A stretch of DNA of 64,000 nt from Enterobacteria phage RB18 (NC_054906.1), one strand, 5' to 3'. Shown: positions 4,571 to 28,121, counted from the first letter of the stretch. Numbers and translations: made by a program. Notes: generated by a model from the sequence alone, not told the origin.

Positions 4571-5208
4571 TGAATGAACCCCAATTACTAATTGAAACTT
4601 GGGGTCAACCTGGCGAAATTATTGATGGCGTACCAATGCTTGAATCTCATGATGGAAAAGACTTAGGTTTAAAACCGGGTTTATACATCGAAGGAATATT
4701 CATGCAAGCGGAAGTTGTCAATAGAAATAAACGTCTTTATCCAAAACGTATATTAGAAAAAGCGGTAAAAGACTATATTAATGAGCAAGTTTTAACTAAA
4801 CAAGCTCTCGGAGAATTAAATCATCCTCCACGCGCTAATGTTGACCCGATGCAAGCCGCTATCATTATAGAAGATATGTGGTGGAAAGGAAATGACGTAT
4901 ACGGACGAGCTCGTGTTATTGAAGGTGACCATGGTCCTGGAGATAAATTAGCAGCTAATATTCGTGCCGGATGGATTCCAGGAGTTTCTTCTCGTGGATT
5001 AGGTTCATTGACTGACACAAATAAAGGTTATCGTATCGTAAACGAAGGATTCAAATTAACTGTAGGTGTTGATGCAGTATGGGGTCCAAGTGCTCCAGAT
5101 GCATGGGTAACTCCTAAGGAAATTACCGAATCACAGACGGCGGAAGCCGATACAAGTGCCGATGACGCCTATATGGCTCTCGCAGAGGCCATGAAAAAAG
5201 CGTTATAA
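4570..5208 (+). CDS. 21: Prohead core scaffold / maturation protease gp21 (212 aa)
   Basis: Length and sequence match T4 gp21; TAATG coupling to gene 68. Confidence 0.92.
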   Translation: MNEPQLLIETWGQPGEIIDGVPMLESHDGKDLGLKPGLYIEGIFMQAEVVNRNKRLYPKRILEKAVKDYINEQVLTKQALGELNHPPRANVDPMQAAIIIEDMWWKGNDVYGRARVIEGDHGPGDKLAANIRAGWIPGVSSRGLGSLTDTNKGYRIVNEGFKLTVGVDAVWGPSAPDAWVTPKEITESQTAEADTSADDAYMALAEAMKKAL

Positions 5209-23346: not shown

Positions 23347-23350
23347 CAAT

Positions 23351-23368
23351 GGGGACCGAAAGGTCCCC
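23351..23368. terminator. Terminator GGGGACC-GAAA-GGTCCCC between gene 54 and alt.-3-like gene
   Basis: 7-bp stem, GAAA loop, flanking T/A runs. Confidence 0.8.
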
Positions 23369-23374
23369 ATATTT

Positions 23375-23665
23375 TTATTTACGGAATGAAATAAAAGCAG
23401 CAACTGAAGCAACAGAGGTTTCTTCAATATAAACTTCAATTTTTACCGGAGCTTCTGACTCAAATTTACCTGTTACTACACCCTGAAAAATACTTTCAGT
23501 CTGTTCTGGCTTTGAAAAATTTTCAGAAGGAAAAATTCCGAACTTTTTATCTGTTCCAAAAATTTTAATAAATTCATCGTAAACTGCTTCATTAAAAGCA
23601 TTATCAGCAGGAATAACGCCTTCAACTACAAGTTCTTGACCTAAAAAGCGCAAAGAAGATTTCAT
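23375..23665 (-). CDS. Hypothetical protein (96 aa, T4 alt.-3 position)
   Basis: ATG start with GAGGA SD; preceded by conserved 54-bp leader element. Confidence 0.7.
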   Translation of the reverse strand: MKSSLRFLGQELVVEGVIPADNAFNEAVYDEFIKIFGTDKKFGIFPSENFSKPEQTESIFQGVVTGKFESEAPVKIEVYIEETSVASVAAFISFRK

Positions 23666-23672
23666 TTTGTGT

Positions 23673-23726
23673 TCCTCATGTTATGTCAGTAAGACTACTA
23701 TAACACAATATGAGGGACTTGTAAAC
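23673..23726 (-). repeat. 54-bp leader element, copy A (early-type promoter GTTTAC-N18-TATAGT plus leader stem-loop) upstream of alt.-3-like gene
   Basis: 51 of 54 identical to 38812-38865; -35 at 23721-23726 overlaps stop of Alt paralog. Confidence 0.7.
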
Positions 23727-25783
23727 TACATTTTGAACTTTTTAGACATTCCGTTGATGTTAACCAAAGAAGCTAAGATTTGAGAAACTTCGTTTTCCTC
23801 TTCTTTTGATTCTTCTACAAGGAATTGATTAAATCCAGCCATTGGACGAACTTCTCCGGTTTCCATTAGATAGTCACCATCATATACTGATTCTTCTAAT
23901 TGTTCAGAAGGAGGAACGATTGTACCTTCGATTAGATACTTGTTATAAGCAGTTTCTTTCATAAAGTAAGTACTTACTTTATTAATCTTCAGTAAAATTC
24001 CACGCGGTAGAATAACTTCAGCTTCTGATGGAAATCCTGTTAAATGACCTGGAACGATAACTTTGATTCGCTCAGCTCCTTTAATTACCATACCCACGCT
24101 AGTTTCAGCATCTTCATTAGCATATGTAGAATGACTACCCATATGCATCAAATCTTCTGCATCAACAGAACCTTCTCCTTCACCAGAAAATACTGCGCCG
24201 GAATCATCTAGAGCCATATAGTTTTTACCATGCTCACCGAAGATATTTGGTTTAAGTGATGTCGATACGAAGTTCTTGAAATAGAACATTTTGTTTTCAA
24301 TGTTATGACGCAAAGTTTTAAAGGTAACTTCTTGTCCACGATAAAGCGTAGTTCCTGGAGGAAGAACTGAACCTTTAGCGAATGCAGAATCCAACGTCTC
24401 GATGTGCTTAATAGCTCGTTCCATATATTCTTCACGGGTAGAATCTGGTTTACCCAAAAGGAACGAGTTCATTTCAACATATGAATCTGCACAATAATCT
24501 TCAATTACATCAGATTCAGCTTGAGTTAATCCTTTTGGAGTTACTTCGGTGCTTGCGTATTCATATGCCTGAGCAGCAGATTCATTAATCAATTTATAAA
24601 TGCCATTCATGACAAATTGAATAATAGCTGTCTTTTCATCTGGCGTAGCTTTAGAACCTTTAACCAAATCATTGATAATTTTCTTAATAACATCAAAGCT
24701 ATTAGAAATATTAATATCAGCAAGATCGCTTAAAATTTTATCAGTTTTATAATCAAAGAATTCTTTATTCTTTAAATATTCTTGAGAACCTTGATATGTT
24801 ATATCGCTCTGCAACTTGATGGATGGATCACGTAAACGTGCATGGGCTAATGCAATATGATTTCGGAAGTTTTCTAGTTCATAATCGCTAGATTTAAAAC
24901 GAGAAGCACTCCTCATACCACCGATAGCTCCTTTGTTGAAGTTTGAACCAATCTGAATAACGCCAGAGTTCATTGGTCCTTCTGCTTTATATACCGGAAC
25001 TTTGGATTCAAACTCTTGATATTTCTTAGCAGCGAAGCTATCACCCTGAAGTGAAGCATCAACAGTAGAATATTGAGCTTGTGCTGCTAATCGACGACTA
25101 ATTTTAGTTTTCTGAATAACAGCTTGGTCAGTGCGCTTATCATTTTCTAAAGCAATAGAAGCAGCAACTGCGACAGCTTTAGGAACAGCATTACCTGTTT
25201 TAACGTCTACATAAACATCACCAACCTTTGATTCAACTTTTGTGAATAACTCAGCTGAAATAGGAGGTACACCTGGAATGTCTTCTAAATTGGCATTTTT
25301 ACGGTAAACCATAATATATGCATATTTCTTATCATAGTCCCAGATTTCCTTTAAAAGAACATATCGGCCTGCTCCTTTAGTACGTACTAAACGGTCAGCA
25401 ATAACTTGCATTTGACGAGCAGCGCCATTTGTTTTACTCTTTAGTACGCGGAATAAGCATGCATCAATTTTATACTGTTTCATTGTTTGAAGAGCAGTAT
25501 CAAAAACAGCATTAATGACGCCAATTGGATTTCCACCCAAGTTTTTAAGCTTAACTAATGATAGTTTCTCATTAACACCTATCATTACGATATGCATCAT
25601 TTTGTCGCCTGGCTTAACGTTTTTATTCGTATCACCGCCAGAGGTGTATGTACAAAATCTAAATCCGGGGAGAACGCTTTCTTCACCGGCTTGAATAGCA
25701 AAAATTTGTGGTATTTTATGCTTAGGATTTAAGTTAACAACCGGCGCCGAAGCGCCGTCAAATAATTCTGTAATAAGTTCCAT
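23726..25783 (-). CDS. Alt-like mono-ADP-ribosyltransferase paralog (685 aa), intact
   Basis: N-terminus MELITELFDG identical in type to Alt; C-terminal R (LYRGQ), STS (FVSTSL) and EAEV motifs; diverged central region. Confidence 0.85.
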   Translation of the reverse strand: MELITELFDGASAPVVNLNPKHKIPQIFAIQAGEESVLPGFRFCTYTSGGDTNKNVKPGDKMMHIVMIGVNEKLSLVKLKNLGGNPIGVINAVFDTALQTMKQYKIDACLFRVLKSKTNGAARQMQVIADRLVRTKGAGRYVLLKEIWDYDKKYAYIMVYRKNANLEDIPGVPPISAELFTKVESKVGDVYVDVKTGNAVPKAVAVAASIALENDKRTDQAVIQKTKISRRLAAQAQYSTVDASLQGDSFAAKKYQEFESKVPVYKAEGPMNSGVIQIGSNFNKGAIGGMRSASRFKSSDYELENFRNHIALAHARLRDPSIKLQSDITYQGSQEYLKNKEFFDYKTDKILSDLADINISNSFDVIKKIINDLVKGSKATPDEKTAIIQFVMNGIYKLINESAAQAYEYASTEVTPKGLTQAESDVIEDYCADSYVEMNSFLLGKPDSTREEYMERAIKHIETLDSAFAKGSVLPPGTTLYRGQEVTFKTLRHNIENKMFYFKNFVSTSLKPNIFGEHGKNYMALDDSGAVFSGEGEGSVDAEDLMHMGSHSTYANEDAETSVGMVIKGAERIKVIVPGHLTGFPSEAEVILPRGILLKINKVSTYFMKETAYNKYLIEGTIVPPSEQLEESVYDGDYLMETGEVRPMAGFNQFLVEESKEEENEVSQILASLVNINGMSKKFKM

Positions 25784-25786
25784 GAT

Positions 25787-27883
25787 TTATCCTTGAACGA
25801 ACTTGTAAGGCATGTTTGTAATATCTATGCAAGACGCAATAATTCCAAGAGATGATTCTACTTTCTGTTTAACATTTGATGAAACAAATGATGCAAAGTC
25901 AACTCTGTCTTCTATTTCAATATCACCTGTCATTGCAACCAATTCACCAGTTTCCATTAAATGGTCTCCGTCATAGATTACCGATTCGGTGAGTTCTTCG
26001 GTGGTCATAACTTCAGCTTGAATGAGTTTTGTATTATTAGACGTGGTTCCGTCATTATTAGAAGCATCAGTTATTTTATTAACTTTGACCATCAATCCGC
26101 GCGGTAGAATAACTTCAGCTTCTGTTGCTATTCCGAGATTTCCTGGATATACAACATTAACTTTATGAGCTCCATCAATTGCCCATCCTATTTGAACTTT
26201 AACGTATTCAGGATTTTCTTTATACGCTCTTATTTCGCTTGGATTAATAGTTATTCCTTCTTCATTTTTATCAACTGTCAATTCATTACGAGCTTCTGGT
26301 TCTAAAAGACCAATACCAGCATGTGTAATTCCAAAACGTCCAAAAATGATAGGAGTTAAAGAAGTAGATACAAAATTTCTGAAATAGAACACTTTATTTT
26401 TAACTAGTGCTTCGTATATAGGAGCAGTCATACTTTGAGCACGATAAACTGTGATGCCTTCCGGTATGCGGTCACCATTTTCAAAAGCTGAATCTAAGTT
26501 ATTTATAGCAGATTCAATTTCTTTTTCACTCATTACATCATATCGTTCTGGATTGTAACGACCTAAAAGAAGATTATTGATGTCAGTATATCCTGAACCG
26601 CAATATTCTCTAATGCCACGCTTTTGTGATGGAGTATATTTAGAACCATCGCGGGCAATAGTAATATCAATCATTGGACCAGCACCAATTCCAGAAAAAC
26701 TGTAAATCATTCGTTTGAGGAATTTAGTTTTTGCTGCGTTCCAGGAATTTTTAGTTATTTCTTCCCAGACTTCATCTGGTTGTCCTTTACGATTTTTATT
26801 ATGATTAGCAAGCCATTTATCTTTATAATCTTCAAAGAATTGATTTACAGCTGCTGCGTATTTCTCTAAACATTTTATTGAAGTAGTTGGTTCATTTTTA
26901 ATTGCATTAAAAATTACTTCTTTAATTTTTTCTGAAACTTCACCGACTTGACTCATTGGAAAGAATTTATAATCATAGTGAAGTTCATCTGCCGTTCCTT
27001 CAGCAATAATTTTTGCTGCCTTTGTTTTAGAAGCTAATGAATTAATTCCAATTTTCATTTCTTCTGCTTCGGGAATTAAAGGTGCAGTAGCTGGTTTATT
27101 AAAATTAGCTGCTGTAGATTCATACTTCTGGAATAATTCACTTTCAAATCTAGAAGATTCCAATGACTGACTTTGTGCAATTGCTCTACGGGAAATTTTA
27201 ACTTTAACGATTACAGCTTGGTCAGAACGTTTATCATTTTCTTGCGCAATAGATGCTGCAATTGCCTCATTTTTAGTTACTTGGGCTCCAGTATCTTTAT
27301 TGATATAAACATCACCGACTTTCGATTCAACTTTAGTAAAGAGCTCGGTACTAATTTCCGGAACTCCTGGAATGTCTTCTAGTGATACATTTTTGCGATG
27401 TATAAGAATATATGCATACTTTTTATCGTAATCCCAGAGTTCCTTAAGAAGGACGTATCTACCACCTGAACGACTACGGATAAGTCTATCAGCAATAACT
27501 TGAATTTGTCGAGCTTGGCCAGCAGTTTTAGACTTAAGAATACGAAGCATACAAGCATCAATTTTATATTGACGCATTGTTTGCATTGCAACAGTAAAAA
27601 CTGAATTGATATAATTAATCGGGCTTGGACCAAGACCTTTTAATTTGGCAATTGAACCTTTAGCAGTTAATGTAAAAGGAACAATATGCATCATTTTATC
27701 GCCCATCTTTAAATCGCGATTAGTATCACCTCCAGATGTATAGGTACATAAACGAAAGCCTGGTTGTTCAATTGCATCATCAACATGAACTGAAAAAATT
27801 TGTGGTATTTTCTTCTTTGGATTTAAGTTTGTAATCGGAAGAGTAGTATCTTCGTCAAATAATTCTGTAATAAGTTCCATCAT
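25787..27883 (-). CDS. alt: Alt ADP-ribosyltransferase, packaged internal head protein (697-698 aa)
   Basis: MELITELFDEDTTLPITNLNPKK N-terminus; VYRAQ / FVSTSL / TEAEV ART motifs; TATAAATA upstream; adjacent to gene 30 as in T4. Confidence 0.92.
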   Translation of the reverse strand: MMELITELFDEDTTLPITNLNPKKKIPQIFSVHVDDAIEQPGFRLCTYTSGGDTNRDLKMGDKMMHIVPFTLTAKGSIAKLKGLGPSPINYINSVFTVAMQTMRQYKIDACMLRILKSKTAGQARQIQVIADRLIRSRSGGRYVLLKELWDYDKKYAYILIHRKNVSLEDIPGVPEISTELFTKVESKVGDVYINKDTGAQVTKNEAIAASIAQENDKRSDQAVIVKVKISRRAIAQSQSLESSRFESELFQKYESTAANFNKPATAPLIPEAEEMKIGINSLASKTKAAKIIAEGTADELHYDYKFFPMSQVGEVSEKIKEVIFNAIKNEPTTSIKCLEKYAAAVNQFFEDYKDKWLANHNKNRKGQPDEVWEEITKNSWNAAKTKFLKRMIYSFSGIGAGPMIDITIARDGSKYTPSQKRGIREYCGSGYTDINNLLLGRYNPERYDVMSEKEIESAINNLDSAFENGDRIPEGITVYRAQSMTAPIYEALVKNKVFYFRNFVSTSLTPIIFGRFGITHAGIGLLEPEARNELTVDKNEEGITINPSEIRAYKENPEYVKVQIGWAIDGAHKVNVVYPGNLGIATEAEVILPRGLMVKVNKITDASNNDGTTSNNTKLIQAEVMTTEELTESVIYDGDHLMETGELVAMTGDIEIEDRVDFASFVSSNVKQKVESSLGIIASCIDITNMPYKFVQG

Positions 27884-27903
27884 AGCCTCTCTAGTGTTTA
27901 TTC

Positions 27904-27911
27904 TATTTATA
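27904..27911 (-). promoter_or_regulatory. Late promoter TATAAATA on minus strand (alt)
   Basis: Forward TATTTATA, about 20 nt upstream of alt ATG. Confidence 0.7.
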
Positions 27912-27917
27912 AAATTA

Positions 27918-27934
27918 AAGGCCCGAAGGCCTTT
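27918..27934 (-). terminator. Hairpin AAGGCC-CGAA-GGCCTT after gene 30 operon
   Basis: GC stem with CGAA loop. Confidence 0.55.
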
Positions 27935-28121
27935 AATAATCTAGTGGTAAGAGAGTACGGTATATTTCAAACTTTGGACCTTTTTCATAGGCATCAAATG
28001 TTTCTGTGAATTTATTATAAGCATATGCATCTACAAATTCGAGAATGACTTGTGATACAGAAGTAGAAACATCTCCACCTTCTTTTTGAGCAATGACAAT
28101 TGTTTCTAAGTAAGCTTTCAT
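27933..28121 (-). CDS. Small hypothetical protein (62 aa)
   Basis: ATG start overlapping gene 30 stop; hairpin downstream. Confidence 0.55.
   Translation of the reverse strand: MKAYLETIVIAQKEGGDVSTSVSQVILEFVDAYAYNKFTETFDAYEKGPKFEIYRTLLPLDY

Follow-up and report, generated by a model that had tools for sequence, protein, structure and literature searches.

The window, a stretch of 64,000 nucleotides of the Enterobacteria phage RB18 genome (NC_054906.1), carries the alt locus, flanked by gene 30/alt.1 on one side and alt.-3/gene 54 on the other and preceded by a late promoter motif (Table 1). ORF calling revealed two adjacent ORFs at this position, an upstream one of 698 aa (25787-27883(-)) and a downstream one of 685 aa (23726-25783(-)), separated by 3 nt (TAA-ATC-ATG); the same spacing is found in the annotated loci of T2, RB14, wV7, and JS10. 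The preliminary description of this DNA had reported two intact minus-strand ORFs with a shared MELITELFD leader, and both points agree with the coordinates and translations obtained here, the 698-aa ORF carrying one extra methionine (MMELITELFD). The SD sequence GAGG (27886-27889) precedes the two ATG codons of upstream alt by 2 and 5 nt, respectively, and T4 alt, which starts with the same ATGATG, is annotated from the second ATG. In view of this spacing and of the T4 annotation, the upstream Alt most likely comprises 697 aa, with its start at 27880. The SD-like AAGGA of the downstream gene lies within the terminal codons of upstream alt, and this junction appears compatible with translational coupling or re-initiation.

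Table 1. Features of the RB18 alt locus, with positions counted from the first nucleotide of the window; promoter and terminator entries are motif matches only.
Feature	Position	Strand	Remarks
Terminator-like hairpin AAAGGCCTTCGGGCCTTT followed by AATTTT	27917..27934	(-)	between alt.1 stop and alt late promoter
T4-type late promoter motif TATAAATA	27904..27911	(-)	16 nt 5' of likely upstream start; motif match
Upstream alt gene, assigned T4 alt orthologue	25787..27880	(-)	697 aa from second ATG; ORF reaches 27883
Upstream Alt layout			N-propeptide 1-6; alpha/beta ~12-230; helical central ~250-470; ART ~470-628; C-propeptide from 633
Upstream N-terminal gp21 motif I-T-E, residues 4-6	27863..27871	(-)	identical to T4 Alt ITE-6
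Upstream catalytic residues	26114..26443	(-)	R480 26441-26443; STS505-507 26360-26368; EAE587-589 26114-26122
Upstream C-terminal gp21 motif L-T-E, residues 630-632	25985..25993	(-)	aligns with T4 Alt LTE-619
Intergenic junction	25784..25794	(-)	SD-like AAGGA 25790-25794, TAA 25787-25789, ATC spacer, downstream ATG
Downstream alt paralogue, 685 aa	23726..25783	(-)	intact form of T4 alt.-1 + alt.-2
Downstream N-terminal gp21 motif I-T-E, residues 4-6	25766..25774	(-)	E6 invariant in alignment A2
CTAAAGAGT, 5' copy of 9-bp direct repeat	25436..25444	(-)	T4-lineage deletion endpoint
Downstream catalytic residues	24017..24340	(-)	R482 24338-24340; STS507-509 24257-24265; EAE587-589 24017-24025
Downstream L-E-E, residues 629-631	23891..23899	(-)	aligned with T4 Alt C-terminal gp21 site
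CTAAAAAGT, 3' copy of 9-bp direct repeat	23737..23745	(-)	20 nt ahead of downstream stop codon
Early-promoter-like GTTTAC-N17-TATAGT	23697-23725	(-)	5' of alt.-3
alt.-3, 96 aa, DUF5498	23375..23665	(-)	PF17602 E 3e-62; final gene of same-strand unit
Bidirectional terminator-like hairpin	23349..23370	both	between alt.-3 and gene 54

T4, wV7, T2, and RB14 have the late promoter motif in the equivalent position. The hairpin preceding it has a predicted RNA folding energy of -13.5 kcal/mol (z = -3.5) and is also present 5' of the alt promoter in T4; a conserved terminator upstream of alt has been described (PMC1524935). This hairpin would shield alt against early/middle transcription coming from upstream. 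No terminator-like hairpin was found on the minus strand within either alt gene, and the first minus-strand terminator-like site 3' of the alt late promoter is the one between alt.-3 and gene 54. These signals fit one late transcription unit, as the earlier suggestion of co-transcription had it. That suggestion invoked a single late promoter and no internal terminator; the promoter motif and the lack of a terminator hold, but at the motif level this promoter is not the only one, as a second TATAAATA is located inside the upstream gene (26500-26507(-)) and could provide the downstream gene with a late transcript of its own.

Both proteins match PF03496 (cut-off 23.4), with 129.2 bits (E 1.6e-37) for the upstream and 70.3 bits (E 1.8e-19) for the downstream copy, and have the ART fold of the R-S-E clade (PF03496 ADPrib_exo_Tox, Alt/VIP2). 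PHROG 802 covers residues 1-696 of the upstream (E 2.2e-273) and 1-685 of the downstream protein (E 2.4e-255), their homologues carry precomputed PF26846 (Tevenvirinae_ADPRT) and PF03496 assignments, and the similarity to T4 Alt-like ARTs is full-length, including the phage-specific N-terminal domain. A PDB match at the sequence level was not found for the downstream Alt. The upstream catalytic Arg was placed via HMMER alignment to CdtA, at a position that we take to correspond to R295 of iota toxin Ia. In both copies this Arg is preceded by Tyr (Y-R480 upstream and Y-R482 downstream), giving the aromatic-Arg pair of beta-1; FVSTSL, with both serines of S-T-S invariant, is likewise common to both, and the upstream EAE was aligned by HMMER to E-Y-E of the CdtA chain, in keeping with the E-x-E motif of arginine-specific enzymes. 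The R/STS/EAE residues are invariant among the 18 family members of alignment A2 for the downstream copy and in alignment A4 for the upstream copy, which bears out the earlier observation that the R / STS / EAEV motifs are kept in both. The E577A mutant of T4 Alt is catalytically dead (PMC11404850), and by its numbering E577 would be the second Glu of the ExE motif. Judged from their sequences, both genes are intact Alt-family mono-ADP-ribosyltransferases of the arginine type (R-S-ExE).

The identity between the two Alt copies is 41% overall, with 55-80% over residues 1-230, 5-17% at ~300-440, and 30-50% in the ART domain. The domain order of the downstream Alt is that of the upstream copy, with a central helical domain unrelated in sequence; the two central domains give no mutual BLASTP match and fall into different groups, one comprising the upstream copy, T4 Alt and JS10 AltA, the other the downstream copy and JS10 AltB. 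The preliminary description had the central ~300 residues differing; the divergence is real, but by alignment the strongly divergent stretch comprises ~200 residues. Since the helical central domain of the downstream Alt has diverged beyond recognition from that of the upstream protein, a distinct substrate range of the downstream enzyme is plausible.

The upstream copy is 71% and the downstream copy 41% identical to T4 Alt, and the upstream copy is assigned as the T4 Alt orthologue. T4 Alt (gpAlt, NP_049811) resembles it in position, late promoter, 5' hairpin, R/STS/ExE residues and ITE and LTE motifs, and the two proteins are 100% identical over residues 1-230 and ~97% identical in the C-terminal 100 residues, whereas the identity is only 14-37% in the central helical domain and 50-77% in the ART domain. 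The difference between the central parts of the two genes is like that of a swapped allele. The T2/T6-type allele carried by the upstream copy is present at an identity of at least 90% in 317 records, and the T4-type allele is ~47% identical to it over that stretch.

Mass spectrometry showed that T4 Alt is cleaved at ITE-6 and LTE-619, yielding a 68.2 kDa product (PMC5694885), in line with the earlier view of the shared N-terminus as a processed leader of head proteins. Sites for gp21 (prohead protease), an N-terminal ITE and an L-x-E ~55-65 residues from the end, are recognizable at the motif level in both copies, and E6 as well as the Glu of the C-terminal motif are invariant (E632 upstream; E631 downstream, in alignment A2). 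The predicted mature proteins comprise 626 aa (70.1 kDa) for the upstream and 625 aa (69.2 kDa) for the downstream Alt; the same calculation gives the published 68.2 kDa for T4 Alt. The C-terminal tails are predicted to be disordered in both copies, with pLDDT ~35 for residues 629-685 of the downstream protein. T4 Alt is present in the virion (~40 copies) and injected with DNA (PMC9026906). Probably both Alt proteins of RB18 are carried in the head and, once injected, modify proteins of the host. For the downstream Alt, the searchable literature yielded neither proteomic data on virions nor transcript or enzymological data.

A short N-terminal leader cut by gp21 after hydrophobic-x-Glu is also characteristic of the IP proteins, which are injected with DNA (PMC7411985, PMC9026906). 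The Alt proteins resemble them in their short gp21-removed leader with the hydrophobic-x-Glu motif. However, the Alt leader has 6 residues (MELITE) vs. ~10 in IP proteins, and in Alt the C-terminus is trimmed too (PMC5694885). The C3-like and binary-toxin R-S-E ARTs (Vis, iota Ia/CdtA/CPILE-a, C3, VIP2, Certhrax; PF03496) share only 14-25% identity with Alt. Unlike these toxins, Alt proteins have a ~75-residue insert between STS and ExE, an N-domain specific to phages, a central helical domain and two propeptides that a protease removes, and are delivered from the phage head rather than via a toxin translocon.

In T4 the place of the downstream gene is taken by alt.-1 and alt.-2 (NP_049810, NP_049809), short ORFs (61 and 67 aa) that lack an ART domain. 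What remains there is a 347-nt stretch from the 5' end of the downstream gene (~96% nucleotide identity), fused to the final 20 nt of that gene. According to base-level alignment, 1,699 bp were lost between 9-bp repeats CTAAA(G/A)AGT, and T4 also lacks one A of an A5 run, resulting in a 1-nt frameshift. The PHROG families of alt.-1 and alt.-2 (23015, 15247) give a better match to the downstream copy. The intact counterpart of T4 alt.-1/alt.-2 is the downstream gene, and the T4 state is derived via microhomology deletion and frameshift; in the T4 record itself, alt.-1/alt.-2 are already labelled as what is left of a duplicate copy of alt. The statement in the preliminary description that T4 has one alt with fragmentary alt.-1/alt.-2 agrees with the T4 annotation, and the second copy is complete in RB18, as claimed, being an intact 685-aa ORF as opposed to the T4 fragments.

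The body of the downstream gene is present as one uninterrupted piece with at least 95% identity in ~400 of ~500 matching Tequatrovirus records, T2 and RB14 included; the identity of the uninterrupted body in ~400 records is 97-99.5%. At least 80% of the whole alt locus is found in 366 records, and the T4-type deletion junction in only 91. An identical, already annotated two-gene layout occurs in T2, RB14, wV7, and JS10 (Dhakavirus), and Alt-like names are given to both genes in RefSeq. The unusualness implied by the preliminary description is therefore not borne out, since most relatives carry both intact genes; the tandem pair is real, ordinary and already known. The second Alt-like genes of T2 (YP_010073850), RB14 ('alt.-2', YP_002854530), and wV7 (YP_007004936) are the same as the downstream copy, with 97-99% protein identity, 685 aa and the same spacing and neighbours; there is no substantive difference between them, and the gene is annotated and functionally uncharacterised. 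The altB gene of JS10, whose pair is named altA/altB, is the Dhakavirus orthologue of the downstream copy (48-50% identity).

Comparison of the downstream copy with wV7, T2, and RB14 gave dN/dS of 0.04-0.06 (55-61 synonymous vs. 8-14 non-synonymous differences), and both genes are under strong purifying selection. The two-gene layout, which most Tequatrovirus records share, is probably ancestral for their alt locus, with T4 as the exception that lost most of the second gene. As T4 and 90 further records lack the downstream gene, a phage can dispense with it on some hosts at least. Single fused alt genes, in which the upstream N-domain is joined to the downstream body, exist in ECML-134 and others. 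The N-domains appear interchangeable, given these natural single-gene hybrids.

The overall explanation that we consider likely is that of tandem paralogous packaged ARTs, produced from a late unit and acting on partly different substrates. Both genes would be transcribed late from the TATAAATA promoter 5' of the upstream gene, in one unit through alt.-3, and translation of downstream alt would be coupled to that of upstream alt. After injection, host proteins would be ADP-ribosylated on arginine by both enzymes. T4 Alt ADP-ribosylates Arg265 of the RNA polymerase alpha subunit (PMC2988021), and the upstream copy would act likewise on this and other proteins, while the substrate set of the downstream copy would be at least partly different, because neither its central domain nor its long STS-ExE insert is related in sequence to the upstream counterpart. 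Several observations count against this explanation: the downstream C-terminal site is L-E-E, not L-T-E, the downstream PF03496 score is lower (70 vs. 129 bits) and there is no PDB match to this copy at the sequence level, the TATAAATA inside the upstream gene could yield a separate transcript, and 91 records lack the downstream gene. The downstream ART could instead be active but redundant with Alt, modifying alpha Arg265 as an extra dose or backup with no distinct specificity. The copies share family, architecture and E-x-E motif, the 91 records without the downstream gene (T4 among them) suffer no obvious harm, natural hybrids retain one body only, and the specificities of Alt and ModA overlap in T4 (PMC2988021). 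Nevertheless, redundancy seems unlikely, as strong purifying selection on both genes in ~400 genomes is not expected of pure redundancy, the central domains are only 5-17% identical, and the two lineages have been distinct since before the Tequatrovirus/Dhakavirus split.

It is also conceivable, and in our estimate quite improbable, that the downstream ART is active but unpackaged and acts late inside the infected cell in the manner of Mod, its conserved termini serving another purpose. The lack of proteomic evidence for it in virions in the searchable literature and the internal TATAAATA, which could give separate late expression, are consistent with this. Such a role sits poorly with the retention of three features of packaged Alt (the unaltered MELITE leader, the L-x-E aligned at the C-terminus and the conserved N-domain), and with the hybrids, whose only alt gene at the locus combines the upstream N-domain with the downstream body. 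As for the downstream ORF being a decaying duplicate, an incipient pseudogene merely still open, T4 proves that loss of the gene is possible, but the low dN/dS, the uninterrupted body in ~400 records, the invariant catalytic residues and an orthologue kept in another genus make this scarcely credible. Taken together, conservation and selection all but refute the pseudogene reading.

With tandem packaged ARTs as the preferred reading, we tentatively propose, as a possibility that is still doubtful, that the downstream Alt is a second packaged, injected effector with substrates unlike those of Alt, for example a component of a defence system or of translation. If this is true, the T4-based picture of the immediate-early take-over misses an effector delivered by ~80% of Tequatroviruses, T2 included, and some of the contrasts between T2 and T4 in host range or sensitivity to defence could stem from the T4 lineage having lost it. 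The searchable literature contained no functional work on the second Alt enzyme. As a genome feature, the tandem pair changes little, being annotated in hundreds of genomes. T4 is atypical at the alt locus twice, in lacking the second gene and in carrying a different central and ART allele in alt; what has been concluded from T4 on injected ARTs may therefore not hold for T2-like phages, therapeutic isolates among them.

The conserved N-terminal domain gives weak matches to GNAT-like folds. One may speculate that this domain, common to both copies, adopts a GNAT-like fold and is more than a packaging module.

The alt locus lies among neighbours that place it in the gene 29-48-54/alt.-3/alt/alt.1/gene 30 segment of T4-like phages. 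The ORF list confirms the two minus-strand ORFs of the preliminary description, an upstream one of 698 aa beginning with MMELITELFD and a downstream one of 685 aa beginning with MELITELFD. They are separated by 3 nt (TAA-ATC-ATG), with a Shine-Dalgarno-like AAGGA within the final codons of upstream alt. Like T4 alt, for which the second ATG is the annotated start, upstream alt opens with a tandem ATG-ATG, and a GAGG element precedes these ATGs at distances of 2 and 5 nt, respectively. Mass spectrometry of T4 Alt revealed that six residues are cut off at ITE-6 (PMC5694885). This Shine-Dalgarno spacing and the published six-residue propeptide favor the second ATG, and the upstream protein is thus most likely 697 aa long, starting at 27880; automated callers choosing the longest ORF probably add one residue. 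The alt.1 gene and the end of the DNA ligase gene share 4 nt, and a terminator-like hairpin comes after alt.1. On the other side of the pair, alt.-3 has its normal length; T4 mutants that escape the CmdTAC defence system are changed in this gene, with an extended Alt.-3 C terminus (PMC11618068).

Features of the alt locus of phage RB18 (window coordinates)
Feature	Position	Strand	Remarks
alt.1	27933-28121	-	62 aa; Pfam PF24647 "Phage_blade", E 1.9e-29
Terminator-like hairpin	27917-27934		-13.5 kcal/mol, z -3.5
Late-promoter motif	27904-27911	-	TATAAATA
Upstream alt, longest ORF	25787-27883	-	698 aa
Tandem ATG-ATG	27878-27883	-	opens upstream alt
Segment divergent from T4 alt	26081-27163	-	residues ~240-600 of upstream copy
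Internal late-promoter motif	26500-26507	-	TATAAATA, exact match
Upstream C-terminal tail	25787-25984	-	predicted disordered
Downstream alt	23726-25783	-	685 aa
A5 run	~25620-25624		one A missing in T4
9-bp direct repeat, 5' copy	25436-25444	-	CTAAAGAGT
9-bp direct repeat, 3' copy	23737-23745	-	CTAAAAAGT
Downstream C-terminal tail	23726-23890	-	predicted disordered
Early-promoter-like GTTTAC-N17-TATAGT	23697-23725	-	directly past downstream stop codon, ahead of alt.-3
alt.-3	23375-23665	-	DUF5498; 96 aa
Bidirectional terminator-like hairpin	23349-23370		past alt.-3

Both products belong to the Alt family of ADP-ribosyltransferases (ART). They score far over the cut-off of Pfam PF03496, match PHROG 802 ("Alt-like RNA polymerase ADP-ribosyltransferase") end to end and have all those features of the Alt-like family and the R-S-E ART clade that can be assessed from sequence. 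An NCBIfam scan of both proteins gave no match. The catalytic motifs, said earlier to be kept in both copies, are indeed invariant in a three-way alignment with T4 Alt and in two 18-member family alignments: the catalytic Arg (R480 upstream, R482 downstream), S-T-S (505-507 and 507-509, respectively) and E-A-E (587-589 in both copies). HMMER aligned the upstream E-A-E to E-Y-E of the CdtA chain and the upstream Arg to the position corresponding to R295 of iota toxin Ia. A PDB sequence search yielded only these weak CdtA/iota matches for the upstream copy and no match for the downstream one; to our knowledge, no structure of an Alt protein has been solved. The E577A mutant of T4 Alt has no activity (PMC11404850), and this residue would be the second Glu of the E-x-E motif if numbering is counted from the first ATG.

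AlphaFold2 models (pLDDT 71.9 for the upstream and 74.9 for the downstream copy) have a common architecture, consisting of an alpha/beta N-terminal domain (N-domain, residues ~12-230), an all-helical central domain (~250-470; pLDDT mostly 75-92 upstream and 80-92 downstream), the ART domain and a disordered C-terminal tail. GNAT-like fold hits of the N-domain are without sequence support, since no Pfam family matched the first 240 residues of either copy, even at a permissive threshold of E <= 10.

Overall identity between the two copies is 41%, with 55-80% identity over residues 1-230, 5-17% over residues ~300-440 and 30-50% in the ART domain. BLASTP detected no similarity between their central segments of 185-188 residues. 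Instead, these segments fall into two orthologous groups, one comprising the window upstream copy, T4 alt and JS10 altA, and the other the window downstream copy and JS10 altB, so the duplication is older than the split between Tequatrovirus and Dhakavirus. T4 Alt shares 71% identity with the upstream copy, identified by sequence as its orthologue, and 41% with the downstream copy.

The downstream gene is the intact form of what is fragmented in T4. As the preliminary description stated, T4 carries alt.-1 and alt.-2 at this place; together they match, at about 96% at the base level, the first 347 nt of the downstream gene and then its last 20 nt. The T4 deletion is 1,699 bp long, with its junction within a 9-bp direct repeat of the form CTAAA(G/A)AGT (junction copy at 5105-5113 of the T4-type remnant locus L001). 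T4 has also lost one A of an A5 run, and the remnant is thereby split into two ORFs. Since the remnant maps to the intact downstream gene minus this deletion and one A, the two-gene state is ancestral and that of T4 degenerate. This reading agrees with the T4 record, where a note ascribes alt.-1 and alt.-2 jointly to an ancient duplication of the initial part of alt.

The frequency of the pair was assessed in a collection of 50,697 phage records, about 500-540 of which have any match to the locus. At least 80% of the 4.9-kb locus is present in one place in 366 records, and the 568 residues absent from T4 are found at 95% identity or more in 400 records, as single uninterrupted pieces in the rows inspected. 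The T4-type deletion junction occurs in 91 records, RB55, RB59, and T4T among them. T2, RB14, and wV7 have an identical layout, with 697/698-aa and 685-aa genes and a 3-nt gap, and JS10 has the same tandem arrangement of altA and altB. RefSeq gives both genes the name "Alt-like RNA polymerase ADP-ribosyltransferase"; the labels used are "alt.-2" for RB14 and "alta/altb" for JS10. A 2006 paper pointed out duplications of Alt, among them one of full length in Aeromonas phage 44RR (PMC1524935). Overall, the tandem alt pair exists as described and its reading was correct, yet the arrangement has been annotated before and is that of the majority. By the yardstick of the preliminary description, for which the pair would be ordinary if most relatives carry both genes intact, it is ordinary, and the unusualness implied there is not borne out by these records and layouts.

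The possibility that the downstream copy is a pseudogene or decaying duplicate was considered. Comparison with wV7, T2, and RB14 revealed 55-61 synonymous and 8-14 non-synonymous differences (dN/dS 0.04-0.06; 0.02-0.09 for the upstream gene). Such low dN/dS values and the invariant catalytic residues, along with the conservation of the gene, rule out decay. Natural single-gene hybrids also bear on the downstream copy. In the isolate genome of ECML-134 (NC_025449; locus L009, 3152-5212) a hybrid is the sole alt gene between alt.1 and alt.-3, and a lone hybrid occupies this place in three assembly contigs (L006, L007, and L008, each from position 5001). Their 5' parts are 94-100% identical to the window upstream copy and the remainder 90-100% to the downstream one, the switch points being located at about nt 150, 450, 540, and 630. 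These differing positions imply independent unequal crossovers, all of which kept the downstream body, the part of the protein beyond the N-domain. Because the hybrids join an upstream N-domain to a downstream body, the N-domains appear interchangeable, and the downstream body is functional in the "Alt slot." Collapse of the two copies during assembly could produce similar chimeras and is possible for metagenomic contigs; it is generally unlikely, as exact identity between the copies extends over no more than 28 nt, at the start codon, and over 18 nt or less in the rest of the N-domain region. Megablast with junction-spanning queries is poor at counting hybrids, because the similar N-domain DNA gives near-full-length alignments in two-copy genomes as well; only ECML-134/SCS4 stood out, and ECML-134 is borne out by its annotated locus.

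T4 Alt is a prohead-core protein; each head contains about 40 copies, which are injected along with the DNA (PMC9026906; PMC2988021). The prohead protease gp21 trims it at ITE-6 and LTE-619 to 68.2 kDa (PMC5694885), a mass also given by our own calculation. ITE-6 is kept in both window proteins, and the aligned C-terminal site is LTE-632 in the upstream and LEE-631 in the downstream copy, with the cleavage-site Glu residues invariant in the family alignments; the mature proteins are predicted to have masses of 70.1 and 69.2 kDa, respectively. The C-terminal 54-65 residues, past the aligned gp21 site, are predicted to be disordered. Nonetheless, they contain an invariant YDGD...E.GE (Y-D-G-D, then E-x-G-E) just past the cleavage site in both paralogue families, which suggests a conserved role of the C-terminal propeptide, for example in targeting, tethering or auto-inhibition before cleavage. 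Literature searches on how the second Alt copy functions, is named or is represented in virion proteomes gave no specific result and revealed neither proteomic nor transcript nor enzymatic data for the downstream protein; a paper on RADAR and a 2026 paper on a Klebsiella phage proved irrelevant. Its packaging, activity and targets are inferred. The second enzyme might, with considerable reservation, be regarded as a distinct injected effector, outside the textbook picture because T4 is without it.

The expression signals are only partly as first described. The late-promoter motif TATAAATA ahead of the pair is present, and its position is conserved in T4, wV7, T2, and RB14, but it is not the single one: another copy is located inside upstream alt, 717 nt upstream of the downstream gene start. 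T2, RB14, and wV7 carry this internal motif at an identical offset, and T4 alt lacks it. With about 0.16 occurrences per gene and strand expected by chance (our own estimate from the motif chance rate), it may have arisen by chance or may serve the downstream gene as an internal late promoter. The strong hairpin preceding the first motif matches the conserved terminator reported "upstream of alt" (PMC1524935). An internal terminator is lacking, as originally stated: neither alt gene contains a minus-strand terminator-like hairpin, the first being the bidirectional one.

Relative to T4 alt, upstream alt is an allelic mosaic. Its product matches T4 Alt completely (100% identity) over residues 1-230, and the C terminus is about 97% identical; by contrast, the ART domain is only 50-77% identical and the central helical domain 14-37%. 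T2 and T6 have the window-type allele, which occurs in 317 records at 90% identity or more; identity of the T4-type allele to it is about 47%. With their conserved flanks, the two alleles resemble cassettes that can be exchanged.
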